A stretch of 64,000 bases of DNA, from NCBI RefSeq assembly GCF_033153115.1, contig NW_026889779.1:9052001-9116000 (forward strand), read 5' to 3'. This document shows, piece after piece, positions 2,891 to 34,175 of the stretch (within the stretch, counting starts at the first letter, position 1; each line of letters starts with the position of its first letter). The notes below the pieces were generated by a model. It was not told the DNA's origin. It saw only the letters and a list, made by a program, of their open reading frames with translations, and searched no databases. The position numbers were made by a program, and so were the translations under genes. This stretch comes from Saccostrea echinata (taxonomy: Eukaryota).

Positions 2891-5178
2891 CTATTTTGAT
2901 TTTTGTACTTCTTCTTGAGTTGTCATTCAAAAAATTTGGATCAATTTGCTTCCTTTTCTTCTGTTGAAGATTTCATTGTGGGGTAATTGACGGTGTCAAT
3001 TTTAAACAATATTTTATTCGCAAAAATGGGATTGGGCAGGCAGCAAGCTCAGCCTATTTTAGTCATCTCTCAACTGTGTTATAAGTTAATTATGGCCCTC
3101 ATCCCTGGGTCTTGAAAGGCGGGGCATCTTCTCTAAAATTATACCTTAAAAATCTCCTATAGTCCTGAACAGCAATCAGGCGAAAAGCCAGTTTTAAAAA
3201 TATGTTGTAGTTAAATTTTGAAAATCACCCTCTTAATCCAGACAAAGGCTCAAGTATGGACTATAAAATTTGAACAAGATATAAACATTACACTTATTTT
3301 ATTTTAACCAACATTTTTCAAATAAAAATATTGTAATACACTGTTTATACATGCAGCACTAAGTCTGATTAAGTTTTGTATATTTAACTGAATGTGCAAT
3401 TTTTGTTCACTAAATTTAATAATGTCCACCGAGGCCAACTTTAAAATAATGTTTTTTTGCCCTCTCCCGACTTAGGATGAAAAACTTGGGTCGGTAGGTA
3501 GGTGGGAGCAAATGTCAACATCAATGTTGAATTTTTAAAATCTATTCTCCAGAATGCATAAAAAATTATAGGTTTCAAGAGGTTAAAAAAGGTCTTGAGT
3601 CGGGCCATTTTTTGCCAGTTGGTCGGGTGAGGGTAAACAAACGCATTTTACAGATAGCCTGAATTATATGATAGTGACTGTATCGGATCTATGATTGATT
3701 CTTTAAAATAAAGTCTTCCATTCTGTTTTCATTGCCTTGAAAGTACTTTATGAAAAATGTCGGATGTGAAAACTGTAAAATGTCGGAAATGAACAGTTGA
3801 ATGTTTAAAAAAAAAAAAATCCGGAAATCAAATGAACCTCTTAGCTGTTTTTCTAGTGCCCATCAATATTCTTTTAAGGTAATGTGAGAGTTCTGTTATA
3901 GTCATCGACCTTTGCTTTGGTTAGGGATGCAAAACATTTCAGAGGCCATGGTTTGGTCACAATTCTGACAGGTATCACCCAAAAGGAAGGAGCTTAACAT
4001 ACTTTTTTTACCTGCTCCACTTTACTCTGTGTGCGCAGACAGCGGCGTGACAGGACTAAATGGACTATAATCACTAAGTTTGTCGCCTGTACAAGTTGAC
4101 AAATTCTTTACCGCACAAATGCACACCTAGGTAAACAGCTAATATCTACACAGAAATTTTTGCCCCGAGCAACTTCAGATGATAAGAAAGGTCTCTGTGT
4201 TTACTGTACATCTTTGGTCTGTTGTGGCTATCTCAGGTGTATTTGTTAGGGGCATGTGAATTATGACTGTTCCTAAACCAGTCATCGACAAAAACGAAAA
4301 GTTTTCATGCATCCGGATTTAGACAACATGGACGACTATGTTTTGAATTGTTTTACTATGAAATTATATACAGTTCGTTAGTTTACAAAATGTAAACGCC
4401 AACTTTTATAAGTTATACAAAGAAAAGAAAAAAAACCCATAAAAATCGTAAAACACTCCATATATTTTGGCAAGGAACATTGTAAACTTACTGCAACGAG
4501 TAGAACTCCTGATATGTAAGTAAAACAAATAATTCACATTCCGTTATTATAATTTCAAATTCAGCATTCATAGTTTTACAAAATGTCAAAGCTAAATCAA
4601 AAATAATGGTCACCGATTAGATGAATAGCACCATTACTGTGTGTAACTTCACATCAATGTTAATCACAGCGATTTACGAATAATGCCACGAAGCATACAA
4701 TTACGCCAAAAATACAAAATAAACAAACCGATTCTGCGACTGAAAAAATGTACATTGTATATCTATACAAAAACGGTTAATATCTTCGAATGTGAGTCGT
4801 TTTAAAAAATGCACTGGACCTTTACAAAAATCATGTTACTGATACCGGTAAGAAATGAGACACAACCCGACTATATATAACTGTTCCGTCTATTAATTTT
4901 CAACCTAAAGTTGAAAATTAATTTGTCATGTAATACATGTATATTTTTTTTTTTCAAATTCAGACTGACAATTAAGAAACGACATAACCATAGCACCTAA
5001 TAAAATTGTCTCTCCGATCAAAATTCGAAAGCATTCCTTCACATGAGCACTTTCCATCTTCTGGTATTCACAGTCTTGGGACTGTGGTCATGTCACTTCC
5101 GGGGAATCCGAAACACAATGGAAGTCGGACGAACTCTTCGTACCCCCTCGGTATTTGAGCAAGCACTCACTTGCAGAT

Positions 5179-6424
5179 CTAAGCTGAGCTGTTGTGAAGA
5201 TGGCCTCCTTCAAGAGGTTCTTTCTCGCTGTTCAAGAGAGGCTCGTCAATGTTGTTTGAATGTGGCTTGTGTTTGTCCTTAAAAATTTTCCAGAGTTCGT
5301 GCAACAGATCTGTAACAACCAGATTTGTGGAGTTTTTAGAAATCACATACATAAGGAATATACCGTCATTTCTGAGATATTCCCTGGAGAATTTAGCGCA
5401 CAACTTCTTATCGAAACCTGTATTGATTTCATTGTTTATTTTCAGGTACTTTTTAACATATTGCACTTTATTATTTTGGTATAGCTGGTAGAACAACCAT
5501 TTTAAAAGATTTATAGCTGTCAGGAAAGCGATTAGAAAAAACCAAAACCACAGGAAAATAAAGATTTTCTCGTTGAATAGATTAACAGGAAGTACGCATT
5601 GCACTGTCCAACGCTGAAGATTCTGTAGTTGTCTGATCTGAAAGTCGCATAGGGTCACGCGTGGAAATCGCGGAGACTCCATCATCGGTTCATTGTCAAT
5701 CAAATTTTGAATCACTTCAAAACCGTAAAGGTTGTACTTCGTTGCCATGAACGCATTAAGGATGAAAAATTGTCCAATTACGTTAGCCATGTAGACAACC
5801 TTGATTGTGATGAAGAGACCTATTAGATATGTCCCACCTCGGCGGTCACAGATGAAGAAGCAAAACCTCTCTGCTTTTTTCTTGGCACGGACAAAGATAT
5901 TGTTTCTGTACTCCTGGTAAGTTCCCAGCCACTTGTCCAGGTAGCTGGCGAGATTTTTGATCGCTTCCGCTCTATCATCGGGAGAACCAAGTTGAGTTTC
6001 CTCCGCCATGGCGACAATCTTATCCAGATTCACACCGGAAGCGCTATGAGTAAATCGCCAGAAAAGATTCGGGACTTTAAACATTAGCGCCTGGAAAAGT
6101 AGAATGATGGGTACCCACTGATAGTATGTTATTTCCGCTTCCTGTCGCGTACGAATATCAATTGGAATGGTTTCCTCCATGGGAATATAGTACGTATTAG
6201 AAATCCAGCAGATGTATGTAGTGTAGGCTTCATATGCATCTGTAAATTCGGCCGGGCACCAGCACTGAATTGGTTCGCCCACAAATTGGCCCGTACTGAC
6301 GACAACAGCGAAGATAACAAGGAGGATAACTGTGTAACGATGATTGAGACGATCAATCCAGTCATCGTTGTTGGTCCCCCGGAGTTTAGAGATAGAGGGA
6401 ACCGCGCCTAATATACCTTCCACC
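5179..6424 (-). CDS. Innexin (gap-junction protein, unc-9-like), main coding exon
   Basis: Contains the innexin signatures DDWIDRL, CWCPAEF, YYQWVP, FPRVTLC and NEKIFIFLWFW, with four hydrophobic segments. The ORF 'start' is GTG, preceded by the acceptor ttttttag|G at 6424, so the true N-terminus comes from an upstream phase-2 exon. Confidence 0.96.
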
Positions 6425-7502
6425 CTAAAAAATAGAAGACAGAGGGATGTAGAAATTACATCAATGATTGATTTAGTATTTTAGTTTTGTACATCTTTTA
6501 TATGAATTAAACTGATTCCTCGTTTATTCTTTAAATGTTCTAAAAGAATATCGTCGACTTATACTTAAGTTTTATATCTCTGAGTATTTAATTTAATAGT
6601 TTTGAGTAAGAACACAAAAACAGTCAAAATTATTATGATATGTATAATTAATAGTATGTATAGTGACGTTGTTTTGTAGCAAAAATTACTTAATAAAATA
6701 CAAAATACCTAAAATATTTAAAAAAGACTAGGTAACTGCATTTTCCCAAACTGTTTGAGTAGGTAAATTTACAACACTCAAAAACCTATAAACTTAAGAT
6801 TTAAAGGCATATTTAAAAGGGGACGTTTGTTTGTCCAAGGGCGTGAGCTCTTGACAAGCACATATGTTTGAGACTTCCTGCACTAGTCCATTTAAGTTAC
6901 TTTTTATCTGTGTGTAGGCTGATATATCAGATAGATCGTGATAATTCTTTCACCTGTTCCCCTTTTTAAAGTTTCTTTTTAAAAATCATATTAATCAAGC
7001 GCGATCAATTTATCGATTTAATAAACACCTATCAATAGGTGAATAAAACCCCTTTTCGTTATAAGTAAATTGCCCATATTTAAAATTCCATTCTATTTAT
7101 GAACATATAACAGAAAAATCGAGCAAAACATTGCGTGGGTTCATCACCTGTCACGTTTACCTTTCTTGTATTAAATAATCTGAATAATTTTAAATAAACA
7201 TGAAATTTACCGGTTTCTATTACAACCTATTGACAATAGCAAAGAACTTTCAATATGATTTTGCAAAATGATTCAACTATAAATATCAAACTTTAAAAAA
7301 AAAAAACAACAACAACAACAGCCATGCATGCACACGCAAGTGGTTTTTTGCAAATTAACAATCAAATCAAAAGTTAATCCTTTCAAAATTATACAAAGAG
7401 TAAAAAAAAAAATTAAAAGGTGTTAGAAAATTCTAATTTATTCAAATTAAGCATTAGGGAACAACTCGCTAGTAAGAAGAGCGGATCCAACAATATACTC
7501 AC

Positions 7503-7529
7503 GCCGTGGGCGATGCCAAAGGAAAAAAG
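7503..7529 (-). CDS. Candidate 27-nt symmetric (phase 2-2) microexon of innexin 1, encoding (x)FFPLASPTA
   Basis: Long polypyrimidine tract, then cctttag|C TTT TTT CCT TTG GCA TCG CCC ACG GC|gtgagt. Frame-compatible with the acceptor at 6424. Confidence 0.6.
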
Positions 7530-7725
7530 CTAAAGGACGGGACAAAACAAAAAATTCAAAAACGACTGACGAAGTTTCGGCCTAGCTGACTTTATACTCT
7601 TTTTTCTGTTTGTGGTACAAACGAAGACTGGTTATTTTCAAACTAAGCAAAAAAACTAAGCCGTCAGGCAGCGGTTGATTAGTTAACGTTAGTTGAGTTG
7701 TTCAGACGGTTATTTGTATACTTAC

Positions 7726-7835
7726 GCCGTTGGGTCTCCCCCAATATCATAGATCTTGTGTCTATGGAAACCGGCGGAAATATTTTTAACACTAAACTTA
7801 TCATTTTGCAGCAATAAACTGGCAAAAACCTTCAT
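7726..7835 (-). CDS. Candidate alternative first coding exon of innexin 1 (MKVFASLLLQNDKFSVKNISAGFHRHKIYDIGGDPTA)
   Basis: ATG at 7835, 36 open codons, then GC|gtaagt. Phase 2 joins in frame to G GTG GAA at 6424. Confidence 0.65.
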
Positions 7836-8815
7836 AATTTTCTGTGTTTAGACACCCCCACACCCTTTACATTTAAATTCAACAAATCCTTGGAATTTTT
7901 TCACTACAACTTGAAATTATCACACTTTTCTGTCATAAATTTGTGTTAATTTTACTTACATGTAGGAAACACACCCTATCTAACGCTGATCTTGTAAGAA
8001 TATGAACTTATAAAAGAGCTAACTTTTATATTGTGAAACTTTAAAAGCTTAAGTACAGGGATTTCGCAATATCTGTACAACTGTACCTTATCCATTCTCT
8101 AGCGGAAATTTCTAAGTAGATATAAACGGTACAAAATGTTAGTTACATTTTGTATGTTCTAATATATACACACCAGGATTTTCCACTTAATTTGGTGAAT
8201 TTGAACTGAAAACAATTTAAACCATAAATAAAATTGATTCACACCACTGCTCCTCTACATCTAATTTATGTGTGTTCAATGGAGTATGCCTTATAAATGT
8301 GTCACCATTTTCCAATGCCCCACTTTATCACAACGAAGAGAGATATGGACCTAGAATATTAAATGGTACTTCATCAAATGCGACATGTGTGCGATAAACA
8401 TTCGTTATACTTATCAATTCAGTCGCCTAGTCAAAGATAGTTGTACCAATAATTTAGGGATAGGATAAGTCTCCAACCCTAGCATTTTTTAAAAATCTTT
8501 TTTTAAAAGTATTTTTTGCCTAAGGGCTTAACGCATCTTCTCTTAAACTCCATTCCATGTATTTTTTTTTTTAAATTTTAACTGGTATACACATTCAGAA
8601 AAATGCTGAAGGTTTGCATAAAAGTGCACACATCCGGAAGGTGAAAACTAAACACAATGTTTAACCTACCTGTAACCCTGAAATACAATATACATGTGCT
8701 AAAACAATCATAACAATCATTTACAATTTGTCCTCAAACAAAACCTAAGATATCAACACAAGTTTGTGGTATATACATGTAAATCGGTCTATTAGTCTCG
8801 AATTTGAATACCTAC

Positions 8816-8900
8816 ATGGTTCAGAATACTTCCCCTGATTTGTCCTGGGGTTTATGATCTTCAATACCCACTACACCCGGTCTTGGACCCTCCGTAAGAG
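8816..8900 (-). other. Candidate alternative first exon of innexin 1 ending in a split start codon AT|G
   Basis: tctgaaccAT|gtaggt with an in-frame TGA just upstream. The donor is weaker than consensus and the upstream boundary is unknown. Confidence 0.35.
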
Positions 8901-11900
8901 TGTTCGGTCAAAAGTTCCACAAAAGTCCCCCAATTCACGTCTCACTTATCAATGGAAACCAAACAGACGAGAAGTAAACATTTCTCTGATTTAGTCACAC
9001 ACACACCCACAAATTTGATGTCACGCTTGGTCTGAGCGGATACTCAGTAAGGTACAGTCAAGAAAAAATGTGCTGTTCTGCGGGTTTTTAAAAATCTCGA
9101 GCAGAAATCCTGATAAATTATGATCCCCGTTAGGCCCGTGCACCTTTATTCTCAAGTTACAGGTATCACAACTTCTGTGGAGGTTTGGTATACATGTATG
9201 TAGGTGATCATGGTAGATTTTTTGTACAAAAAGGAGAGATGAATCATTTTTGTTACGTCATGAATAACTTGTCGAATGTATAGTCCCCTACATCAAGTAT
9301 CAAATTCTTGACATATATAGATCTTGTTTTATGGTGTTTACACCTTATTTGTTTTTTGTACAAATAGAATGGGACCGGTCATTCACCCTTTTCTACCCGT
9401 ACGGTAGACAGCGGTGTAACGTAGAAAAGCTTGCCATCTTTGTATTTATTGTAATCATTAATAACATAATTAAATTTGATTTTCAAAAATTCATAAAAAA
9501 TGACCATTTTCAACCTCAAATTGAAAATCAAGGACAAAAGTGAGATTCAAAAGAACACTTTGTAACATTTGTTTCTGTGGTCAACAATCTAAAAGGAATG
9601 TTCAGACAAGAATTAACTTCTACTCAATAGTCTATCATTCGCTCTTTTTTCGTTTGTTTGTCTTTGCCATTCGTTTGTACTTTGAGTTGGGTTGAGCAAC
9701 AAAACCCCACTTAGGAATTAATTTATTACTAGCGTTTACAGCACCAATCCTGAATAAAGTTTTTAAGTACATGTATTGCATACTTTGATGTACCGGTAGT
9801 CACTGGAGTCGAGAATCAGAACGCTGGTAAAAGTACTTCATCAGCTGTTTCAAAACAACTTATATATATCAGATTGTGGGTTTTCCCTCGCTCTTGAAAT
9901 TGAAATTGATAACTAAAGTCTTAAAAACAACCAAAATAGAAAACAACAGTATCACCGGCAACAAAATCAAACAGATTTGTTCTTTTCATTGATGGCGAAG
10001 GAAGAGGTTTAGCGTATGTCTTGGTTTGTTCAGGTCCTTTCTTAGCTGTCCTTTTAGTGAACAATAAAATTGAACCCCATACCTCCTGACTGACAACATG
10101 AACAGACTGGCTGCATAAAAGTTTGTTGTTAAAAAGAGTTGTGCATTTGACAATTTTATTATTTTATTCTGCTGTCAGAGTACAATCTTAAAATAAAATG
10201 GCTTGAGAAAGTGGTAATTGTTTATAAATCTCATGGCGTGACTGTCTGTATTTCGACCAATATCTTTAATACAGCTGAGAATTTTCATTGAAGTAGTCGT
10301 GTATGGAAAAACAGGAAGCGTTATATCTTTTCTCATATTACGTCCTTGAAAACGAGAGAGTTCGTCAGGTTTATTCCCATTCCAATAAAGATCCCCAAAG
10401 AATGAAGTGAATCTGAGAAAGATTTTAAATTTAGATCATTTTAAGTGCGATCATATGCACTGTAAAGGAATTAAAGTTAATTTTCAAAAAAAGACGATGA
10501 TTTCACATGGAAGTCAAAGTTATTTAAAGTTCTGGAGCTAAACCCGGTGATTTAAAGAGGTCAATGTCCAGGGTCTTGATTACATTGAAAGATTAGAACT
10601 GAAAGGAATTGATATCACAAGAAAAAGAATTGAAAATGAACAATAAATAAGGATATCGTTTTTATGAGGATATTGTAATTTTGGTGACACACGATAGAGC
10701 GTTGACACAGATTAGTAAGTACCCCCATAATAAAGAATCTGACATTTTACATCAGTACTGAGGAGAAATAATTGAGTCATATTAATTTTTTCAATTACGA
10801 TTTTGTACATATAATAATGAAAAGAAAATAAGGTCTATTTCAAATGTTATTAATATGAAGAATGAATTTAAACTTGTTGGTCTTTGATTTCGAAAAAAAA
10901 AAACAACACATGATTTATTATTATACATATTCCAAGTATATTTGTGTAAGAAAAAATATGCGTCTTAATCGGAACAATCGACTTTAAATGCGTATTCTGT
11001 GATATCTACATAGTTACATAACTAGCTTCCTAAAATTAAACTCCGAAAACCTGTTTAAATTTGCTGTGTTCATGTACCATGGTAACCGTGTTTATACAGC
11101 CGGGTATTACAAACATGGCTGGTTCAGAATTTGATGACCTGTATGTAACCGAGGATTATAATCTCATACTATCCAAAGTTGATAAATTGGAGATAACCGG
11201 CCAGTATTCAATAACCCCCGACTGTGAGAGGTCAATGGCGTAATAGTTTATGAACCTTTTCAATGTCTTTTTATGTCTCTTTAAGTGTTGATTTGGTAAC
11301 CATGGAAATAATTATAGCATATCACGAATGGTTATTATCCCCCATAAACAGCAGAATGTCCGAAAACTATAGAAATATAACTTTGAACATTTGTTATTCG
11401 GTTACTATGGCTGTGTAATATAGAACATATTGTTTTAGGCACAAGGTCTGTATCAAAGATGCTAAAGAACACTATTTTGGATTGGTTCTAAACAAAAGCA
11501 AGGACATGCAAAAAAATATGTAAAGTTTCTTTGTTTATGACATAATGGCTTTCATGTTTAGGGTTCAATCATTGGGTCATTTCAATAGTTGATCTGCAGA
11601 CTCTTTGTTCTTCCGTTAAATACAAAAACCGACACCCAATATTACATAGTGGAAATTCAATCAGGATTTTTTCTACTACATAAGGACATCTATTTAAATT
11701 CACATGGTTTTTATAAATGATATGCTTACATTCTTTTGTTTGCTTTTGGTTTTTTTAGGTCAAGGAGTCACAGACGGTGTCTGTTTCAACTTTACAGGGT
11801 ATGGATGTGGAAAGGCCAACAAAAACCGCAGCATGTAGGACAAGTTAACAAAAGTCGGGATGCAGAGGAAATGCATTAAAAAAAATATCACAAATTCTTC

Positions 11901-12507
11901 CAGACTGGGTCACGACCCAGATCGATCGTTATTTGATCTATGCTTTGATTTGTAGATAACAGCATGAACATTATCCCAGCGGTTCAACAAGGAGCAACGT
12001 TAGCTAGCTTTGTTTTAATGTTGGAAGATGACGGGTCCATTTTCCGTGGGTAGATTGTTACGTGATATTACATGACCTGGCCTTTTGGTAATTCCTTTAT
12101 AGTTATCTGATTGACAGATCTATTAATTAGCATACAGATAGCAAGAAACTCATTATGATTTAACGTTTAATTAGATTACTTATCGCTGACGCATGGTGCT
12201 AAACTTAGAAGATTTACACATTGTGTTTTGTGATAAGAAACTTTAACATTGTTAATAAACGAGATAAAGAGACTAAGAATCAAGGTACGTACCTTCACAA
12301 ATCGTGACCAAAAAATAAAACAAACTGAAAGCATGAAATATATATATATATAATTAAAAAAATATAGGAAAGATACACCCGATTACCTAACATAACTTTC
12401 TTATGAACCATCGTCGTCCCTTATAGATCATTCAAAGGGTCACTAATTTCAATCTATTTAAAAAAAAAGCTTCATTAACAGAATATGGAGACCTTTGATT
12501 AACTTAC

Positions 12508-12620
12508 ATTTTCGCCGCCTTCTGTCCTCTGTCACGAATTGGACACTAATCCAAAGGGAAGGGAATGGTCAGTTTAAGCGATTATAGACTTCGAACTGCT
12601 TGTTTGCTCAGAGACGTTTG
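12508..12620 (-). other. Candidate alternative first exon of innexin 1 ending in a split start codon AT|G
   Basis: ggcggcgaaaAT|gtaagt: consensus donor, A at -3, in-frame TAG upstream, in a relatively GC-rich patch. Splicing to 6424 gives MVEGILGAVP. Upstream boundary unknown. Confidence 0.55.
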
Positions 12621-13196
12621 TTCACTGTCAGAAAGCGGGAATTCTCCTTATCTCGCGGAAAGATGGCCGTGCTAGGTCAAAACTGGGTCGTTAACGTACA
12701 TCCCATATGCATAATTTTTGGTCTGGTGAAAGGGTACCCCATACAGACTCTCTTGAGCAATTTTAATTTTAACAAAAAAATTTTCTTTTGAAGAAAAATA
12801 TACAATTTACAATCATACCAGATACAAATAAGAAAAATTCAATTCAAGAAATCTCTAAAGTTTTACATACACAAAGTCTTCAGTTATAAAATCTTTGTTT
12901 ATGGTGATTTTTGTTTTATTTTCTTTATCAGATTGTGTGTCCTACAAAACACTTTAAAGGAAGAAAACGTATGAAAAACTTTACAAAAAATTGGACAAAA
13001 AGGAAATATTTTTTCTTTAATTATATTGTAATGGATAATATCCAAAATAAAAAGATATTGTTTTTTATCATTTGATCGATCATTTAATTTTCATTGTTTT
13101 TTTTTTTTTTTTTAATATCTGTTCTGAATACATGGTCTATGTAATATTTTGAGCGTTTTTTTTTCTCTCTCTCTCTCTCTTTGTTGACATTGCGAT

Positions 13197-13971
13197 CAGG
13201 CGCGTAACCAGAATGGAAATGAAGTGTACGCAGAGAACGGCAGGGTGTCTGGGGCCGCCTTGACCCCCCCCCCCCCCGATAGTGGGTCCAGGACGAAACC
13301 CTGATGGGGGCCTAGGGGGCGGAGCCCCCGGAAGCTCCTGAGTTTTATCATATATTTCACTCATTTTCTTGTAAAATAAAAATTATGCCATTTCGCCTTA
13401 ATTTTAGAAAATAAAAGACATAGTAATATTGTTTTTAACGCAAAGTTTATACTTCCATGTAAATTTATTGTACGTGCAGTTGAGGCTATATATTTTACTG
13501 TTATTTTGGTATCATAAACTCTTTATTAACGTTCAACAACAAGTATAATAAATGTTAGTTATTAACAAAGAATGCCGTATTTTAATCATTTGAATAGGAG
13601 TAGATCATAGCATTCAACGAAATGTTTGAATTATGATTTCTCAAAGATCTTTTTAAAAAAATATCCGTGTATCATAGAACAATTACAGATTAATCAATTA
13701 TTTATTTGGATTTGTCAATTATTTAATAAAAAAAATTCAAATTTGATTATAAAGACATGATAATATTAAATTTGATTCGAAACAGTATGACACAAAACAA
13801 TATGAAACACAAAAAATTGTTGGATGGTACCGAGATTTTTTTTCAGAATAACCTTCCGTCTCTCTCTCTCTCTTCTAATTAAAAAAAAAATTCTTTATTT
13901 ATTCATTTATTTTATTTTCGAAAATGATGTGTACGCACTTGCGTATTTGCGTATAGGCAGCTACGCGCCTG
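13197..13971. mobile_element. MITE with GC-rich ends
   Basis: TIR CAGGCGCGTA.../...TACGCGCCTG, flanked on both sides by the 5-bp direct repeat GCGAT. Confidence 0.7.
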
Positions 13972-16369
13972 GCGATGTGCTATCATTCACAATCAATGAA
14001 GGTATATTTAACATAATAAAAAAAAATACTTTTTCGTGATGTCATTAAGCTTAATTTAGTGATTGTTAATTTCAAGAAAAAAAAATAATAACGTTGAATT
14101 GTAAAAGATTATTTTAAAACATATGGTGCACAATTTAGCTTCTCTCTTTTCAAATTGAAGACATTTTTTATGTTTTCTGATTCACTGTGATTTGTGAATT
14201 GCTAGACGTAGGCTTGTTTTTACTTATGTTTTGATGGATTATCTTAGTTGAATTGCACTTTGCACAAGACCTAACAAAAATACATATATCAAAACTCCCG
14301 AAACCGATATCCTTTACACAGTCAAAAAGTAAAAATGCGTAATGGCCAAAAAAGATATTCTGACCTCCTGCGCTGGACCCCAGGGGAGAATTTCAGATCA
14401 TATTTGGAATGGATCGTAAGAGGAAGCTGTACTCTATCAGTTATTAAAATTATATAGCTCTGACTTTATTCTGTCTGATTTTATACAACCTTAGATACAC
14501 GACAGACATGAAAGCATTTTTGCGCATTTCCACACCCTTCAAACTTTGGCCGGTATAGGTTCCGCTTAATGCCGGGGCAGGTACACAATCTAGGCGTCAT
14601 AAGAAAATTAAGGAAAACTCAAGAAAAGGCGACAAAAAAAGGAAGGAGAAAAGGAGAGAAATTTCACCCTTAAAGCAAAAAAAAGTGTTTCGCGCATACT
14701 TTTTGTTCGCCTGACCTCTGTGCCGTGACCTTAAGATACTGTAGGATCGATCTCGATCTTCATTCTGTAACACATTAAACACATTTTCTTGATGCAGAGT
14801 ATTTTTTTGACACGGTGATTTATATATTTTTCAGATTTTTTTTCCGAACCACCCCTTTTTGGTGAACTTTCTTTACAATCTCCGCCCGTCGAAAGGATAA
14901 AGAATCGTTCCATGCAAAAAAAAAATTCCCGATCTTTATTCATATGTGTATATAGTTGGGGATTTCGATTCCTATAGCATAAATGATGTCTAATAAATTT
15001 TATTGTGAAAAGGGAATCCACAACAGCCCGGGCGTATACATCGAAGGGGTTCTGCCTACAAGTATCTCCGTGACACATAGTTTTCATCTCAGTAGTGTTT
15101 TCGTCGTCCCCTGATTTTTGTCGACCAAGTATATTTTATAGCTTAAGAATAAGGAGTATCTATTTTTATATTTTGCTATTTTTGAAGTAATTTTCACAAC
15201 TGCATTGCACGACTTGTACTTTATTTCTTTAATTAATCATAAAAAAAGTGAATAATTACTATGCAATTTTATGCACAAATGATGCGTTTGCGACAATGTA
15301 TGAGCATGGATATAGATTGTGTATTACGAGTAGTATAGTTGATAATGGGTCGAATTTCAAACAATCAGTAATGACTAAAAAACTCCGGTTACTTTATGGC
15401 TAACAAAGACAATATAATTTATTGAATTCTGAAGTATAAGAGGAGGGAAATTTTTGAAATTTATTTGAACTTCCGTCCATCCATAAATGCTGTCAATATC
15501 GAGATGGGCTCAAAATATTTCATCATTTTGGTATAAAACTAAGAACGTACTCCAATTCATCAATCGATCACCTGGGGTACAACGTGAAGTATTTCGGGTT
15601 AGAAGTTTACACCTTAGTATGAAGCATTTTATCTTTGTTTACATCAAAGGTAATCGAAGGCATCTCACTGACAAAGGGGATACCACGGTTCACACAATCC
15701 AATTTACCGCAAGGACACATAACATTCGGGCGTGAGGGAGTCAATTTCTAGTTCGAGAATGAAAACAGCTTGAAAATCATGTCATGTAATTTCCATGTAA
15801 TATACATTAAAAAGAAATAATGTATAAGCTGACAGCTGACATGTCGTTGGTTTATGAGAACTTATAAAATCGTATGTCAGGAAAAAAAAAATAAAAATAA
15901 AAGTCCGACCTCCTAGTAAACAAAGTTTTAAAGTGACCCAATTTATATAGTTTGAAATGTGTTGAGAAGGTTAAGACAATTTCAATGAACTAAATCCAGA
16001 AATTTCTCTAACATTACCAATCCAAATGACTTGATGTTGTATATCTGTGTAATAACGACCGAGAGAAAGAGAGAGAGAGAGAGAAACAGGTCATAAACAC
16101 AAAGGCCATCGCATCCATCAAATGACTAAACCCACAATCGCTATAGGCCATAATGTCGGAAACAGGCTGGACAACCAACAAAAATCTCCCAACTATAACA
16201 CAGCAAACTGTATGCAGTCACAATGTCGTAGCATTTTTTGTTTTAAATATTTTTATTTAACAAATGTCAAAAATTTTAATTTTTTTCGCACGAGTTCAAA
16301 CTTTGCCAATTGTGTGTCCCTTTCTTCGGGTGAAAAAACACATAAACAAACAAATGTCAAAACACTTAC

Positions 16370-16380
16370 CCTTCTCCCAT
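16370..16380 (-). CDS. Candidate alternative first coding exon of innexin 1 (MGEG)
   Basis: gagATG GGA GAA GG|gtaagt: consensus phase-2 donor with an in-frame TAG upstream. Gives MGEG-VEGILG. Confidence 0.6.
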
Positions 16381-17921
16381 CTCTGAGGACAAATGCTTCC
16401 TCTATCGTTTTTGGGTATTCCAAATTGTATTTCGCCTCAGAGACACTGAAATTAATTATCTCCACAGATTAGGTATAATCGGGGGACTGAATTCGTGACC
16501 CTCATCCAGAGCTTGAAACTTCGTTGGTCTAGCTGGCCCGACCTCTCGCGTGAATGTCCCAGTCGGGCAATAATACACCCACAGCGATCTTGACAAATGC
16601 TCGTATCCAATTAAAAAGAAATATACATTAATTAACGAACGCGTATTACGTACTGTTCTACGGAATTTCTATTAAAGCCTCGAGTGCATTTTTGGATGTA
16701 CATGTGTTTACAGGTGTTTCCTAAAAAGTGTGATTATATATCGTTTGCCTGTAGGAAATACGATCTCTTCTGAATTTTATGTAATGTGAGTTTACAAAGC
16801 TTTTCTCTCCAATGATTAAGTTAAAAAAAATGAGATAAGTTGAAACGTAGATGTATTCCTCATTTGTAATAAAATAAACGGGTAATCCAACCATAAAATT
16901 TCTTATCACGACAGCATCCTAGCTCTGCGCAGGCCCAGCAGAACATTTCATACACAAAAACAAAACAATTAATTTACTTTTTTATTATTTATTCGCATCG
17001 CTGAACAAAGTATTTTTTTTTAAATTCTGTATTACAAAAATAAGCATAAACCTTGATTTTCTATAAAAGGAATGCCTCTCTAATAAAACAGTTTCAACAA
17101 GAATTAAAACATCTCAATGACATGGATGACATCAAAAAAATCAAATGCAAGCTAATGCCATGAAGACAAGATGAACAAATGACAAAAAATAAAATATACC
17201 GAACATTGCGTGTCATTTAGATGAGATCACATTCTTAATACAGAAGCAAAGAAAAACAACAAAAAATGGGGATGTGGTTACATTTGGAGGAAAATATAAT
17301 CCGTTTACACAACATAAAATCGTTTCATACTAAATAAAATATCTTTTATTTGATGGATGCATTATTTACAAAACTAGCTACAGTGTTTTATACATAGATA
17401 TTATAGCATTTTCTATACAGAGGAAGACAAAGGATTCGTTGTTGAACCTTTCAGAAACTGAAGGCTAAATATCATAAAATAAGACTACATTAAAATGCTG
17501 AATCTCACAACCCAGATCTCACAAGCAACTTCCGAGCTTTTACTCCGGCTCTGTTAATATGCATTGTTTTAGGTGTGTCAGTGACACTGCTAAATACCAT
17601 TACCCAGATAATAATCCTTAATTGAGACTAGATTTTGTAATGCGTTGTTTCGTTATCTAAAAAGTTTACACTGCATATAATTATTAATTACATGTATTAG
17701 TACAACAACCATCATACAGAATTTTTAAACATATTGACTATGTATCTATGGAAGTTGAAAAAAGCACCAAGTCTGACGGGTGACTTTAAGATTGGCCTGA
17801 GAACTAACTAACATTCTGACATAAAACGACTCTAAAAATGGCGAAACTCGAAAGGCTAGAGGTCTCGACAATCGAGACATCACATGAATTGCTTGGGGGA
17901 AAAAATCTAGTCTACTAGCTA

Positions 17922-19148
17922 TCACGTGAGTGGTTCTTTGGCCTCGTCCAGCATACTGCTTTCTGGTTCCAGTTCTCTGTTCTTCTTTGTATTTTGTTTA
18001 TCTTTGAAGATACCCCACAACTCTTTGACAAGATCTGTGACGACAAGATCGGTGGTATTTCTAGCGATGATTCGAAGAAGGAAGACGCCATCATCCCGAA
18101 GATAACTCTCTGCGAATTTCGCTGCCAGTTTCTTGTCAAAGTTCGTATGCAGTTCGTTGTTTATCTTCAAAAACTTCTTGATGTAAGCTACCTTATTCCT
18201 GGTGAACATGATAAGGTAGATCCAGTTCAAAAGGTTAAAGGTGGCAATGCATGCAATAAAAATTAACCAGAACCAAATAAAAATGAAGATTTTCTCGTTG
18301 AAGAGGTTGATAGGAAGAACGCATTGTACTGTGAAGCGCTGCAGGTTCTGAAGTTGGCGAATGCGAATATCACATAGGGTGACGCGAGGAAACCTTGGGC
18401 TCTCTCTCCATGGACCACTCTGCCCCATGTTTTCCAAAAATTCGAATCCGTAAAAGTTATATGAAGTGGCGAGGAATGCGTTCAGTAAAAACAGTTGTCC
18501 AATGGCGTTTACGACGTACAAGACTTTGACAAACAGATACATGGCCGTGAGGTATCTTCCGGCGCGTTTGTTGCAGAAGAAACAGATGAATCGAGAAGCC
18601 TGATGCTTGGTGCGGACGAAAACGTTCCATTTGTACTCTTTGTTGGTATCCAGCCATTTATCCATGAATCTTGCAAGAGCATACAGATCTTTCTGTCTGT
18701 CATCTGGGTTGTCATACTGTGCCTTTTCTGCGAAGTAGACGCATTTATCCATGTTCAAGCCTGATCCGCCATTGAAAATTCTCCAGACCATGTTAGGAAG
18801 TTTAAATAAAAATGCCATGAAAAGTAAAATAATTGGCACCCATTGATAATACGTTAGTTCTGCCGACTGTCGCTGGTCGATGTTGACTGGAATTTCCTCT
18901 GTCATTGGAACATAGTAGGTGTTTTTCACCCAACAGTTCCATTTTGTATACGACTCCATATGGTCTTTGAATTCTGCAGGATTCCAGCATACTATCGGGT
19001 CTTTGAAGAACTGACCTGAGCTAATGGCAACGGTAAAAATTATGAGGAGGACGACTGTGACCACGTGACTCATACGGTCCAGGCCATCATCATTCGGCTT
19101 TCCACGAAGCTTCCGAAAGTTTGGGACGTGTCCCAGTAATTCAGACAT
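17922..19148 (-). CDS. Innexin (gap-junction protein, unc-9-like), 408 aa, single coding exon
   Basis: Contains DDGLDRM, CWNPAEF, YYQWVP, FPRVTLC and NEKIFIFIWFW, and is colinear with innexin 1. The acceptor ttttctcctctttacag|A ATG lies at 19149. Confidence 0.96.
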   Translation of the reverse strand: MSELLGHVPNFRKLRGKPNDDGLDRMSHVVTVVLLIIFTVAISSGQFFKDPIVCWNPAEFKDHMESYTKWNCWVKNTYYVPMTEEIPVNIDQRQSAELTYYQWVPIILLFMAFLFKLPNMVWRIFNGGSGLNMDKCVYFAEKAQYDNPDDRQKDLYALARFMDKWLDTNKEYKWNVFVRTKHQASRFICFFCNKRAGRYLTAMYLFVKVLYVVNAIGQLFLLNAFLATSYNFYGFEFLENMGQSGPWRESPRFPRVTLCDIRIRQLQNLQRFTVQCVLPINLFNEKIFIFIWFWLIFIACIATFNLLNWIYLIMFTRNKVAYIKKFLKINNELHTNFDKKLAAKFAESYLRDDGVFLLRIIARNTTDLVVTDLVKELWGIFKDKQNTKKNRELEPESSMLDEAKEPLT

Positions 19149-22100
19149 TCTGTAAAGAGGAGAAAATGCAATGATTAGCTACTTAAAGCTTAGTTTGCAA
19201 ACCTTTATCGGAAGAGGAAAAGACCTTGCTAATGATAGATACATGTACACTTATTTAGCAAGATTCATAATTCAGCGCCTCATGCCTTGTCAAAAATGCA
19301 CTAGCCCAAGATTACCGCCAGAATCCATATATGATTATTGTAAACGCATAACTATTGGTTGCGTTATGCAGATTGACAACTTATAATTTAGCGCCTCACG
19401 CGCTGTCAACACTAGTCCAAGATAACCGCCAAAATATGAATTCATCAGTAAGTGATTTTTTTGTAAATACAAAGATAAGTTAATTATTGATTGCGCTTAT
19501 AATTTTATAAATTACAGATGCGCTTATACACGACTTAGATTTCCTGTTGTGGGCGCAATATTCAAAGAAAAAAAAAAATAACTTCCCATTCAATTAGCCA
19601 ATGCATAAGGTTACACCGATATAATTAAAAGCTTTCACATTTTATCTCAATTATTTATCAACTTCCTACTTCTGATCAAATTTTTAAGATTAAAGCAAGA
19701 TTTTCATGAAAATTAAAGAAATATATCAATTATCACATGAAACCAAGAAAATAAAAGTTGGCCCTGAATTTGTTGATTGGGTTATGTATGTGAACTTAAA
19801 TGGTTTTTTATATTCTCTTATATCGTATGCATATCACATCAATCTTCTATCTTTTATCGCGGTGCTTGATAGCTGAACAAACGAAGCCAAGCATATATGT
19901 ATAAAAATAAACGACATAATCTGTATACATTGACAATTTTGCCTGAGGCAAGCCAGCTACAGACTTATCTTGGAGTGTGAAAGGACTGAGGCTCACCACG
20001 GGAGAAAATCACACTAAATCAACGGCTTTTCAAATGTCACTTGGTCTAAAGAGGGGAAGTGAATATTTGCCAAATTTAAGCTATATTTTGACAATCAACT
20101 ATATGCAAACTTTATTCCAAAATTCATAAAAATGCCATATCTGACATATGGAATTTGTGACGTCCTTATAACGAGCATGTACCATTTACAGAAAAAAATA
20201 CAATTTTCTAATCAATAAATTAATCTTTCTATTTAACATCATAAATTTCGCTTACTATTTTTTCTGCATGTGCTTTCATCATATAGTGTACTTATCTGAG
20301 GATCAGAGTTAAAATTCATAAAACTGTCAAACTTGACATACGGAATTACATGTATTTGACGTCCTAACATTTTACCACCCAATAAAATACCAAATTAACT
20401 CTTAATAACTTAATCTTTCTTTTCTAAATCACAAATTTGGCTTACTAATTTCTTTACTAGTGCTTTTTTCATCACATTGTGCCTTTTGATGCTAATAATA
20501 TCAAATACATGATCAACGTCAATATTTTGTCAATGTTTTACAAAAAAAGAATTTAAAGTATTGATTTCAATTTAAATTACATTTTTGATTGATACGAATC
20601 GGTGAAACGAATTATGACCAAGGAAAGCATACCACAAAATGTCTTGTTATTGACAAAGGGAAAGTGAATGCACTACCTAGAAATCATCAACCCATTAATT
20701 GCGACACTGTTACAAAAATAGAATTATAAGTACTCGAGTGTGATTCCTATGTTTTAACTCCTTAATGAGCAATTGAAAATACGACAGAGCAAACTTAGTT
20801 AAGTGTCACTTTGTTCAGTCATATAAGACCATGGGGATTAATTTTGTTAAGGCGCAATGAGTTGCAATCCCTCATTATATTTTTTTGAAAGCCACATGGA
20901 CTCGACATATTTACAAAACAATGTCATATAGCTATCCAAACAAATTATGCTTATTGTGACGGGAATTTAAAACATGCCAAACATTTTTAAATGGTTTCGA
21001 CTTTTTTCCCCCAGTGGTCCAAGGGCAGATAATTCTTGTATGGCTACCAGACCAAAAGTGAACAGGTGGATATTAAACATAAATTAGTACGTCGTTTAGA
21101 TTCACAGAAAAAGCCATGGAATATATTTTTCTGAAATACTTACAAACAATCTGAGAATACATAAACAAATATCGCCAAATTGCTTCCTTGTCAAACGGTG
21201 CATTAATTAACAGCTTAATTGACCTGTAAGCCGGGTGAATAACGGATTCAAAGCACCTATGATTAAACTGTTATACAATTTTACTGAAATTAGTCAAGAA
21301 TATACAAAAAACAGTATACATTTTTTTAAAAAAGAAGTGTGATAAATAATGGCTTTATATTGAAGTATATGAAGGCAGACTTACTTCAAGATCCCTTCTC
21401 AAGCTTAACAGTTACAAGACAACGAAAGTTTTTAAAGTCTTTATGAAAACTAAGACTGACGGTGTTTCAGTAAAATTGTTTTTGTCTGCAATATAAGCAT
21501 CGCGTGTGAAAATCGCGTCGTGTTAATAAAAACATGCAGTCTGAATATCCTACGGTCCTTATCAGCTGGGTGTAAATTGTTTTGACGGCCTGTGACAACT
21601 TTCAAAGTACCAAATTTTCCTATTTCAGAAATCTAACTTTCTTGTACTATAACTTTATTTAATACTTACCTTTTTATGTGTCAAAACTCCTCTGTATATT
21701 TGGTATCTTGTTTCCCCTGTCCGAAAGTGTGTTCCGAAGTAAAACCTGTAAAACTTTCGTGTCTGTTCGTCGACGTTACGGTTCACTGGTCGGCCAAAAG
21801 AGAGAAGGGCCACCGAAATACAAGTCGTGGGGCTCCTGCAGGGAACGTAAATAACAAGGTGACATTGTCCGCCGAATATTATTTCTATTTTATTCAAAAT
21901 ATACCGTGGATAAAATTCATGACCGATTGGATGCAGCAATTGAATTAAATAAATACATATAGAAATTTTGGTGAAATATTTTGAATACAATTTTATTGGG
22001 CGAGTGGATATGAACAATACGCCTCTCTCACTTGCTCTGGGCCCTGCTTACCCATTTATGTACCATTTCAGTTGACTTGGGTGAATACAGTGCTTGGGGG

Positions 22101-23013
22101 AAGTTCAAAATTATAATAAAACCTTAAAACTTTACAATATTAATAATTTCTTTACATTTTTTTAAATTCCCCATTGTATGCCCCAGGGACTTCTTGTTGA
22201 CAGACACGACAAACATCATAAACAAAATTCTAGCCCCTCCTATTCCAAAATTTCGTCATTTCATGCACACTTATCGAAATAGAATCCAATTATTGCATCC
22301 ATTGACTTAAAAAAGGATTGGCATAAGTGCACTTTCTAACTTATTTTGATGTTTTGAATTTTTGATGTTTTCAATTTTTTATTAATTTATTAAAACAGAT
22401 TTTACCTAGAATGATAAAAATCTCGATTTTTTTTATTATCAGATGAAAAAAGGAATAAAAAAATAGAAAAATTGAGATGAAAAAAATACAAAAATTGCGC
22501 TACAATCTGTCATGTTGATTGAACAGTGTAATATATGTTGACCCCCTCTAATAATAATAATGATGATAATAATAATAAATGGCAGTAAACGTTTGCTCTG
22601 CACATTTTAATAATTATCCGAGGTTTAGTTTCTTTTTGACTCCCTTGGCCATAAATAGTTAACGGGAGATAACTCTTATAAAAGTTCAAAATAAGACCAA
22701 TAAGAGTTGCATTGCTTGTTTCCTTCAAAGGATATTCTTCAGATAATCTCCTTTTCCGAAGATAACTTTTTCAACAATCTCCTCTTCGTGCATTGAACAT
22801 TGGCAACGTCATTAAGATGCACATTAACAATCTCATCAAAAAAAGTCCCCCCCCCCCCCCAGTGGTTTGGGTTTTCACTAATTAGAGGTATGTAATTTGA
22901 TTTCTTCTGACAATTAAGGAGAGAGACCAAAATAAAAAAAATCTGTTTGATATGAATGGACTCATAGAACACAAGGATGGCTATTTCTGATAATTTTAGA
23001 GCTGTGACCAACG

Positions 23014-23243
23014 CATGGCCGTAGGAACCCGGGGTGGGGTGGAGGGGGGCATTACTATACATTATTGTAGATTACTATAGAAAACATAGCTACTATATGC
23101 TGGTGCCCCCTTAATAAAATCGTCTGAAGACTTTTTTTCGCTTGTCAAGGAATATTTGGTTGTTGATAGTGCCCCCAACTGAAAACGTATGGCTGTGCCC
23201 CCCTCCCCCCTCACACACACTGAAATTGCTTCCTACGGGCCTG
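23014..23243. mobile_element. Small MITE with GC-rich ends
   Basis: Imperfect TIR CATGGCCGTAGGAA/TTCCTACGGGCCTG, with caac on both flanks. Confidence 0.5.
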
Positions 23244-23589
23244 CAACAATAAAAAAAAAATCATGAAAACATTTTATTTAACATAAAAATATAAATTATA
23301 AGAAGATATTTTAAAGATAGAAAGAAAATCTAATAAAACGTCAATAAAATCAGTTAAAGATCAGTTTAAGTTTATAAACATAGCTTATAAAGCTATAATT
23401 ATAAATACGGTGTAACAAAAACATTCTTGTTGATTTGATTACAGTTTTGCAACGAAATGCAACCATACAACAGCAATCTTACTGTTAGGAACGATTGAAA
23501 ACGTTAAATTCTGACATTGTAAATTTCCAAACTTTGTTAAGAAATCAGAAGTCCATGCATTTTGGTGGTATTAAGTATCACAAAACGAC

Positions 23590-25499: not shown

Positions 25500-26765
25500 G
25501 GTGATAAAGAACAGTATTCAAGCTCAAAAGTCCATTCAAACGATAAAAATCAGGAGCAGAGCAAACAAGGACCTCTTAAACATCGGAGGAGGGATCAGGT
25601 GGCATGGAGAAGTGAGCATCCCTGCTGACCGGTCACACACACAGGGAAATAACAGAAAATCCAATCGACAAATCAGTGTGTAAATAATGGCATAACAATT
25701 AGTACGAAAAATGTCAGTCAGCATTTGACTTAATGGTAGATTTTTTTTTTTTGCTGACAAGGTCATTGTATCGACCGTAGAACTTACGAAATGATGACTT
25801 TAAACGAGACTGTTGATATCCTTTTTTCATCAACTTGTTTTGTCAATAACTAACCTCGTTTTAGAAATTGTCATACATAGCGCATGCTCTTGCGTAACGA
25901 ATCAACTGAGAGATATGCAGCTGATAAGAGTATATTGCTGCATAAGTAAGGGAAGTTGACGATTGAAAAGGTAAAGTCATCACGTTTATCATGAAGCTTT
26001 GTTGTTAGGTTATCATTAACGTCTTTTTCTAGTAAAATATCTAGGTATGAAACAGATGTGTCAGACTTTGTGGTATCTTTAATTTCAAGCTCACTGGGAT
26101 ATATCGTGTCGACATATGAACGGAAAAAACTATTGTTAATTGATAATATGTCGTCAATATATCTAAATGCCGAGTTGAAGGCCACAGCAAGTGTTTTCTT
26201 CTCATATATAAGATTTTTAATAAATTCTGCTTCATATGAGTACAAAGATAAGTCTGCTAATAACGGGGCGCAATTGGTACCCATGGGAAATCCGACAGAT
26301 TGTTGGAAGACCTGGTCTCCAAAAAACACATAGATATAGTCAATCAGAAACTCAAGTATATCTTTTTAATATCAACTTCAGAGTACTTGTGTTTACAAAC
26401 AGAATGTTTTTTAACAAAATAATTTTGTAAATGACCAATGACAAGGTAAATAAATTTTCGAGTTCCATTCTTATTGAAAAAGCAGCTGTCGATAATGTCA
26501 AAAAGCCTGGATTTTAATTTATCACTGGGAATGGTTGTATATAGAGTTGAAAACTCACACGTTTTTATGTTATTTTGGTAAAATTTTGTGATTTTAAATT
26601 TTTCCAAACGTTCCTTGCAATTTTTAAATATCCAGATCTGATTTACACAACTTCTCACAAATACATTGTTGCACAGTACTCCTGAAGTTTCTCCTTCACT
26701 GCTTTTTATATTTAAGTGAGGAGTAAAGAAAGAAGTTTGGAAGAACTCTTACTGGAACCCGCTAA
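25500..26765 (-). mobile_element. Degenerate Penelope-like retroelement, reverse transcriptase fragment
   Basis: Frameshifted ORFs contain FSTLYTTIP, QSVGFPMGTNCAPLLADL, FRYIDD and YLDI...TKLHDKRDDF, typical of Penelope-type RT. Confidence 0.85.
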
Positions 26766-33079: not shown

Positions 33080-34175
33080 GAACAGTGATCATGTACAAAA
33101 GTCCCTATAAACAAAATATATTGCGAGCAGAGCCAAACAGACCTCTGAAAACAGGAATGGGATCAGGTGTCATGGAGGAGTAAGCATCTCATGTCGACCG
33201 GTCAAATCTGCCTTGTGCCTCTTGTAATGATCTGTTAAAAGGAAAAACCTGTACACGATTCAGTGTAAAAATAATGGCCTAACAATTTGTAAAAAAAAAA
33301 AAGGCTTTAATCAGTATTCGACCTAACGACAGATTGCATATGCAAACAAGGTCATTATATTTGCGGAATATTGACTTTATAAGAGATTGTTGATATCCTT
33401 GTATCATCAGCTTATTTGCCAATGGTCGGCTTCGTTTTAGAAAATGTTCATACGTAGAACATACCCTTGTGTTTCGAATCAGCTGGGAGACACAAACTCT
33501 ATGTACAAGTGATAATGGTATATTGTTACGGGGGAAAAGATTGTTGACGTTAGAAATGCTGAAGTCACCAGTTGTCTTTCTATAGTAAAATATCCTAATA
33601 TGAAGCAGATGTGTCAGACTCTGGTGTCTTTTATTTCGAGTTCACTGGGATATATAGAATCAATTTCGGAATGGAAATGAATATTGTTAATCGAAAAAAC
33701 GATAAAAACGATATATCTAAATGTTGAATTGAAGTAAAAGAGAGAGACTTCTTTTCATGTAGAAGACTAGAATGAATTCTGCTTCATAAGAATACAAAAA
33801 CAGGTCTGCTAACTTGTACCGATGACAATTTCAACAGATTATTTGAAGACCAGATCACAAAACTATATAGATATTGACAATGAGAAACTCAAGCATCTTT
33901 TCTATATCAACCTTGGAGTACCTGTTTCAGAATCAGAATGATTTTACATAATAAGTATAAGTTTGCAGATTACTAATGACAAAGTGTGCGAATTGAGTTC
34001 CATTTCTATGGAAGAAGCAGTTGTCTATGATGTCAAAAAGTCTGATCTGTGGAATGGTTGTATTAAGTATTGAAAAGTCATACATTTTGAAGCTATTGAT
34101 TTTGGTGAAATTGTATGATTTCAAATTTTCTAAAAGTTTTTTGTTGTTTTTAAGTATTCACATTTGATTACGATA
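33080..34175 (-). mobile_element. Degenerate Penelope-like RT fragment, second copy
   Basis: Colinear with 25500-26765 (gggatcaggtg, gaatcagctgggaga, gatgtgtcagactctggtg, aattctgcttcata). ORF remnant YDFSILNTTIP. Confidence 0.75.

Follow-up and report, generated by a model that had tools for sequence, protein, structure and literature searches.

How does a gene whose main coding exon contains no start codon obtain one, and does the way in which it is supplied alter the protein? This question is raised by innexin A, one of two tandem innexin genes (A and B) on the minus strand of a 64-kb stretch of the genome of the oyster Saccostrea echinata (assembly GCF_033153115.1, contig NW_026889779.1, positions 9,052,001 to 9,116,000). 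This whole stretch is called the window, and positions are counted from its first letter. We propose, with a probability of roughly 0.6, that a codon-splitting phase-2 intron in front of the N-terminal helix accepts at least two 5' exons and two optional microexons, likely producing four subunits in which only the first 1 to 16 residues vary and whose channel gating is predicted to be different.

An innexin exon that requires a start codon from upstream

5179..6424, minus strand: main coding exon of innexin A (open reading frame, Pfam family PF00876, RNA contigs covering 4428-6423)

The main exon consists of a single G, which is the third base of a split codon, followed by 414 codons and a stop codon, and the 3' untranslated region (UTR) extends to about 4430. 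The N-terminal helix, all four transmembrane (TM) segments and the tail are encoded within this exon. Its translation matches PF00876 over profile positions 1-332 of 333 with 326 bits, above the curated cut-off of 25, and innexin B reaches 306 bits. The YYQW motif, which precedes TM2 in innexins, is present as YYQWV in the translation and in its alignment to the Caenorhabditis elegans innexin INX-6. The translation and this alignment also show a pair of cysteines in each extracellular loop (loop 1: QCWCP, ICW; loop 2: TLCDF, QCVL), a conserved feature of innexins according to a review (PMC5412853). From its family membership, innexin A is predicted to form gap junctions or hemichannels. The closest sequences are a Saccostrea cucullata gene model (P0122), with 96.6% identity over 414 amino acids, and Magallana/Crassostrea models with about 90%.

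The acceptor at 6425/6424 is preceded by a pyrimidine tract, and the exon reads G and then V-E-G-I-L-G. A previous inspection of the letters alone, referred to here as the sequence-only reading, had stated that the exon opens with a single G and lacks an ATG. The single G is confirmed, and an N-terminal ATG is indeed absent: the first in-frame methionine is residue 82 of 414, and the start codon is therefore necessarily supplied from upstream.

Two 5' exons are joined to the main exon

8816..9387, minus strand: proximal 5' exon, ending in AT (ACC-AT/G, the slash marking the splice site; RNA joint from 8816 to 6424 in runs X1 and X4)
16370..16694, minus strand: distal 5' exon, coding part 16380-16370 (RNA joints from 16370 to 6424 and to 7761, and a contig of run X5 over 16413-16694)
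12508..12700, minus strand: candidate further 5' exon, ending in AT (AAA-AT/GTAAGT; sequence features only, the upstream bound being a guess)

The RNA evidence comprises contigs from four of 12 listed runs, aligned to positions 4000-23500 and representing at most three samples from two studies. None of the 12 runs is recorded as RNA, and the four used were treated as such because their contigs bridge GT-AG introns and give no cover in several intron bins. The contigs show presence only; transcription starts, levels and tissue are not readable from them. Three GT-AG joints of innexin A were found in contigs of the two studies: 8816 to 6424 in two of the four runs (X1, X4), 16370 to 6424 in one (X5), and 16370 to 7761, also in X5, at a depth of 3.2. 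Two different donors, 8816 and 16370, are consequently seen to enter 6424. A side observation concerns the main exon itself: within 5806-6109 the four runs share approximately 15 clustered positions at which they deviate from the window, and hence the window either carries a divergent allele or stems from a close sister lineage.

Contigs of the proximal exon reach 9131 (X5) and 9387 (X4), and its true 5' limit may lie further upstream. It carries an A at position -3 of the split ATG and an in-frame stop codon two codons upstream, and together with the main exon it encodes a 415-amino acid form that begins with M-V-E-G. The distal exon contributes M-G-E-G, resulting in a form of 418 amino acids, or of 430 or 427 amino acids when one of the microexons described below (C1 or C2, respectively) is included. 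The 200 nucleotides (nt) that precede both donors are rich in guanine and cytosine (GC), ranking in the top 0.9% (16370) and top 4.5% (8816) of 561 GT sites.

The sequence-only reading had listed four upstream donors that complete the frame, and all four are present and in phase 2: 16370 (GG/GTAAGT), 12508 (AT/GTAAGT), 8816 (AT/GTAGGT) and 7726 (GC/GTAAGT). Its caveat that such strings arise by chance was justified. Compared with 200 dinucleotide shuffles of 6425-16400, GTRAGT occurs five times with 4.1 expected, and AT/GTRAGT twice with 0.4 expected (P = 0.065). As these counts do not exceed chance, support for the exons comes from RNA joints and orthologues and not from the motifs. Its further assumption of four alternative first exons is borne out for 8816 and 16370, while the segment 7835-7726 has to be reinterpreted, as its 7761-7726 part is an internal exon.

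Donor 12508 probably belongs to a real 5' exon, to judge from its sequence. It shares with both confirmed 5' exons an A at -3 and a raised GC content (0.465 in the preceding 200 nt, top 1.6% of the 561 GT sites), and its sequence has one match in the genome. In Crassostrea and Mytilus, one and the same short protein is filed under several accessions, which would fit several exons ending in AT. No joint from 12508 was found, and the bin 12463-13113 has a depth of 0 in all four runs, which is not counted as evidence against it. Such an exon would add a candidate promoter and no new protein: the different N-termini that had been expected from 12508 and 8816 are not to be expected, because both would encode the identical 415-amino acid protein. 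Two further AT/GT strings lie at 7960 and 11730. The former (AT/GTAAGT) was rejected as a likely chance occurrence; its GC content of 0.315 equals background (rank 66%), it has a T at -3, and no joint was seen there although contigs of the four runs cover part of the area. Donor 11730 (AT/GTAAGC) has an A at -3, a GC rank of 11% and a depth of 0 in all four runs. Between the 12508 and 16370 exons, the intron also contains a repeat-like insertion with poly-G at 13240-13970, to which many contigs match in part.

Two very probable microexons and their tie to the distal exon

7726..7761, minus strand: microexon C1, 36 nt, phase 2-2 (joint from 16370 to 7761 in X5; insert in Crassostrea gigas P0124)
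7503..7529, minus strand: microexon C2, 27 nt, phase 2-2 (splice sites and orthologue peptides)

The joint from 16370 to 7761 defines 7761-7726 as an internal exon of 36 nt and assigns 7835-7762 to an intron in that transcript. C1 adds 12 residues after MGEG (HKIYDIGGDPT and the split codon), including one basic and two acidic residues and a histidine. For comparison, a cluster of 173 oyster proteins was available, of which 40 members were read and 15 listed, and N-termini were compared among these 15; like those of the other relatives, their isoforms are automatic gene models and not curated. The proposal that 7835-7726 is a first exon for a 37-residue extension does not survive this comparison: RNA enters at 7761, C. 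gigas P0124 contains only the 12-residue insert after MGEG, and the longer extension is absent from all 15 listed proteins.

C2 was not among the four segments listed earlier. It adds nine uncharged residues after MGEG (FFPLASPT and the split codon), and its acceptor, with 87% pyrimidines, is the best in the region; its donor is GTGAGT. When the orthologue inserts were used to scan the intron in about 22,900 windows, C1 scored best at 7760 (55, next best 30) and C2 at 7528 (47, next best 24). The C2 peptide is matched exactly in S. cucullata P0122 and in six of nine residues in C. gigas P0125, and MGEG, C2 and the main exon together yield 427 amino acids, the length of the S. cucullata C2 form. 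C1 has its counterpart in the insert of C. gigas P0124, for which a Logan contig encoding the full C1 form is also on record. Frame, length and the P-T-A end of both inserts are the same in Saccostrea and Magallana. In the window, too, P-T-A are the last codons of either microexon before the donor, and this common end suggests, without proving it, that C1 and C2 are a duplicated exon pair.

The first base of C1 is A and that of C2 is C, such that an exon ending in AT would be continued to ATA or ATC. This destroys the start codon, and both microexons are therefore productive only from the distal MGEG exon; correspondingly, among the listed oyster proteins both inserts occur only after MGEG. 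C1 and C2 together in one transcript were not seen in any listed protein. The intron of 196 nt between them does not forbid joint inclusion, so the two need not be mutually exclusive. The likely set thus comprises four N-termini, in proteins of 415, 418, 427 and 430 amino acids, and the two 5' exons and both microexons are very probably real. Promoter choice, the source of N-terminal variety assumed earlier, would by itself yield only the M- and MGEG- tips, and the remainder would come from the two internal microexons that are tied to the MGEG exon.

Conservation of the tips and of the intron position

Four N-termini found among the 15 listed oyster proteins match the four predicted for innexin A. 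The M- tip is represented by three accessions in C. gigas/angulata and four in C. virginica, and the MGEG- tip by the C. gigas model X3 and also in S. cucullata. MGEG with the 12-residue insert occurs in C. gigas X1 and also in a Logan contig, and MGEG with the nine-residue insert in M. gigas X2 and S. cucullata X2; the other listed members are fragments or intron read-throughs. In a quick tree of 56 proteins with support from the Shimodaira-Hasegawa-like approximate likelihood ratio test (SH-aLRT), innexin A falls into a 12-row pteriomorph clade (SH-aLRT 98) with genes from scallops, mussels, pearl oyster and ark shell. Scallop orthologues vary at the same point, with MGDG (four of four species listed), M (three), MPE/MSE (three) and a 28-residue form (three), and mussel orthologues list MTG and M tips. 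RNA joints together with the isoforms of oyster and scallop orthologues therefore uphold the idea that alternative phase-2 5' exons change the N-terminus. The long scallop N-terminus and the extensions of two other relatives have no counterpart in 6425-17900.

The innexin A protein has 22 matches in the genome, and 12 fetched paralogue N-termini were examined together with A and B. In nine of these 14 loci, an AG acceptor lies exactly one base and 19 codons before a D-D-x-x-D-R anchor; three lack the acceptor and have their own methionine, and two lack the anchor. Two of the nine acceptor-bearing loci, B and L011, carry an ATG of their own just inside the exon; in B, which has the same intron position as A, the exon opens with A-ATG. 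Arginine is found at the acceptor codon in 15 of 38 hits with long N-termini. Owing to the shared intron position, many molluscan innexin gene models carry wrong, intron-derived N-termini. Upstream of 13 paralogue stretches of this genome, the 4-10 kb fetched contained no sequence in common with 6425-17000 and no MG[E/D]G donor. In metagenomes the MGEG-donor motif occurs at no fewer than 120 loci, and none of those listed resembles the window by blastn, which is uninformative.

Other paralogues in chiton and octopus vary at the same N-terminal point. The chiton MGDG/MGEG tips were rejected as orthologous, because the quick tree sets them apart as a chiton pair and they are longer by one codon. 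An innexin of Octopus/Argonauta (P0120, P0290-P0303) shows 11 tip types of 2-46 residues at the same acceptor among the 15 members listed of a cluster of 31. The counterpart of this octopus gene in the oyster is locus L004, which agrees with it in the first 19 residues and in the acceptor. In the clam Mercenaria mercenaria, three isoforms of one innexin (P0201, P0203, P0204; XP_045180021-25) have equal length and 20-26 differences, all within residues 3-93; beyond this part the three are identical. They would represent either tandem duplicates that were merged or shakB-like alternative exons covering the N-terminus, TM1 and loop 1.

Comparison with known systems

Like innexin A, the C. elegans gene unc-7 is a single gene whose isoforms share a body and differ in the N-terminus, and unc-7b is described as having a first exon of its own (excerpts of PMC7455501). 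The RNA joints and orthologue isoforms place several N-termini from alternative 5' exons on a shared body in innexin A as well. Different from unc-7, the variation arises in part from internal microexons that are tied to one 5' exon by the split start codon. The variants ShakB-L and ShakB-N+16 of Drosophila shaking-B are likewise transcripts of one locus that differ N-terminally, but they differ up to TM2, which is the first third of the protein (excerpts of PMC5412853); in innexin A everything from the N-terminal helix onward is shared, and no shakB-type variation reaches TM1. In its gene structure, innexin A thus resembles unc-7 and not shakB.

Splice variants are also known for innexins of the mollusc Limax valentianus (excerpts of PMC8049302), of which innexins 1 and 2 cluster with Aplysia pannexin 2 in a gastropod group that adjoins the innexin A clade. 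The excerpts of this source describe neither swappable tips nor a split start, and the tree of that study contains one variant per gene. RefSeq entries named 'innexin unc-9(-like) X1-X7' from Magallana/Crassostrea, Saccostrea, scallops, Mytilus and Octopus contain the same N-termini, as automatic models only.

Proposed mechanism and possible effect on the channel

In the proposed mechanism, the AT of the proximal exon and the G of the main exon form the start codon of M-V-E-G, and the distal exon 10 kb away supplies M-G-E-G with one more acidic residue, both as seen in the contigs. Transcripts from the distal exon could take in C1 or C2; the C1 acceptor is seen in use here, and the rest is suggested by orthologues. 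The split start codon would lock both microexons to the distal exon, given that an AT exon would yield ATA or ATC. The 5' exons may serve as separate promoters for different cells, with several AT exons widening the expression of one default protein. Finally, the extra residues would lie at the tip of the pore-lining funnel and might shift voltage sensitivity, conductance or rectification, above all in mixed or heterotypic channels.

An AlphaFold2 model was built of the C1 form of C. gigas (P0124, a 90% identical orthologue; 71-row alignment). The model has a mean predicted local distance difference test (pLDDT) value of 80 and contains a helix at residues 14-22 directly after the insert. Its best Foldseek match is INX-6 (5h1q, E 4.9e-16, template-modelling scores 0.67/0.79), in agreement with an INX-6-like innexin fold. 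In the HMMER alignment (offset 12), the short form begins at approximately residue 4 of INX-6, and the start of the MGEG form coincides with residue 1. The acidic residue brought in by MGEG is conserved; C1 contributes one basic residue and two acidic ones, which are kept in both genera, and C2 contributes hydrophobic bulk. UNC-7b has a long charged N-terminal 'ball' with HKK/DDD triplets. The longest extension of innexin A comprises 15 residues, among them H-K (in C. gigas H-R) and two Asp, and an N-D-D run precedes TM1; this extension is far smaller than the ball and is modelled as disordered.

In connexins, charge near residue 2 sets the gating polarity. In the innexin INX-6, the N-termini build a funnel inside the pore, and deleting residues 2-6 abolishes the current and is dominant negative, while deleting residues 2-3 does not abolish it (PMC7015682). 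In UNC-7, voltage dependence varies with the length and sequence of the N-terminus, and rectification of UNC-7b requires charged N-terminal residues (PMC7455501). By analogy with INX-6, UNC-7 and ShakB, the tips of innexin A might alter gating, for which we consider the odds about even to slightly favourable.

Several observations weigh against the proposal. The joints from 7726 to 6424, from 16370 to 7529 and from 7503 to 6424 were not seen in any of the four runs, and contigs of low depth read through both microexons without splicing (X5 7484-7762, X4 7426-7758), so the C1 joint in X5 could come from partly processed RNA. Among the proteins listed, the microexons were found only in oysters. 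The short M form dominates public contigs: by exact-sequence counts, which are rough, the C. gigas-type M form occurs in 209 contigs, MGEG in three, C1 in one and C2 in none from Logan. That the 5' exons act as separate promoters is inferred, given that contigs cannot show starts. Residues 1-15 of the P0124 model have pLDDT values below 50. The changes in innexin A involve only 3-15 residues and are much shorter than those in UNC-7, whose N-termini of 24-168 amino acids produce demonstrated differences in gating and rectification (PMC7455501), and in ShakB swaps the N-terminus contributes to gating and does not set it alone (PMC5412853).

The alternative that survives best, although on balance unlikely, is that the 5' exons serve several promoters or 5' UTRs and that the extra residues are tolerated passengers without effect on the channel. 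It would account for the fact that 8816 and the candidate donor 12508 specify the same protein and that one identical 416-amino acid sequence has three accessions in C. angulata and four in C. virginica, with three to four in mussels. It also agrees with the tolerance of INX-6 to the loss of residues 2-3 (PMC7015682, in excerpts) and with paralogue B, which pairs the same intron with a non-coding exon. Promoter choice, however, needs no microexons, and the conservation of MG[E/D]G between oysters and scallops and of the frame and most residues of the microexons across two oyster genera points to selection on the peptides.

A second, clearly less probable alternative accepts an effect of the extra residues and places it in trafficking, assembly or the choice of partners for co-assembly and docking instead of voltage gating. 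N-terminal changes in connexin 37 disturb trafficking and oligomerisation (excerpts of the review PMC5412853), tip deletions of INX-6 are dominant negative in mixed channels (PMC7015682), and C2 is uncharged and hydrophobic, all of which would be in line with such a role. The varied residues are nevertheless positioned at the end of the pore funnel, MGEG and C1 carry conserved acidic residues, and gating differs among UNC-7 isoforms (PMC7455501), all of which speaks against it. That the two 5' exons alone are functional and the microexons are rare splicing by-products in gene models is highly improbable: the depth of 3.2 and the unspliced read-through across both microexons speak for it, and against it stand strong splice sites, lengths divisible by three, peptides conserved in two genera and the C. 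gigas Logan contig that encodes the full C1 form.

Neighbouring features

17922..19149, minus strand: innexin B, tandem paralogue (Pfam 306 bits; RNA joint from 21670 to 19149 in three of four runs)
21670-22035, minus strand: non-coding 5' exon of innexin B (donor end at 21670, RNA joint)
39443-40873, 47970-49355 and 58263-59606, minus strand: three similar large exons of a tandem family (the one scanned contains an IgGFc-binding domain, PF17517)
61129-62935, plus strand: gene for a BTB-BACK-PHR protein (domain scan; masked stretch at 61563-61714)
25871-26748 and 33279-33641, minus strand: broken reading frames that, judged by eye, resemble reverse-transcriptase remnants of a retroelement

The 3' UTR of innexin B extends to near 17000, which leaves about 300 nt to the MGEG exon of innexin A. 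Further innexins are located 36-57 kb beyond the left end of the window. Three adjoining divergent innexins (L008-L010, G000:C30:8995250-9008041) lack the shared acceptor and have longer N-termini of their own in the same exon, two of them with a stop inside the match. On two other contigs (G000 C4:12016432-12022599 and C43:3186159-3194007), near-mirror pairs of divergent innexins are present in opposite orientation and are possibly haplotype copies.

Meaning for molluscan electrical synapses

The isoforms of innexin A are already contained in public gene models, and no description of them for molluscs was found in the literature searched. Molluscan electrical synapses are classic preparations, for which the literature found does not explain channel tuning in molecular terms. 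It is a tentative possibility that molluscan innexins share an ancient 'socket', a phase-2 intron located a single base ahead of the N-terminal helix, for the swapping of pore-lining tips by promoter choice and microexons, with the split start codon as a lock that would admit microexons from one promoter only. Such a socket might be the main source of gating polarity and rectification at these synapses, ranging from four tips in the gene described here to 11 tip types in octopus, and the acidic M-G-E/D-G might act as a switch of voltage polarity that has been retained since the split of oysters and scallops. If the isoforms are electrically equal, innexin A would have an ordinary multi-promoter gene structure. 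The locus provides a small natural series of four likely subunits in which an identical body is combined with tips of 1, 4, 13 and 16 residues, and thereby a cleaner test of innexin tip function than shakB, where the differences among variants span a third of the protein.

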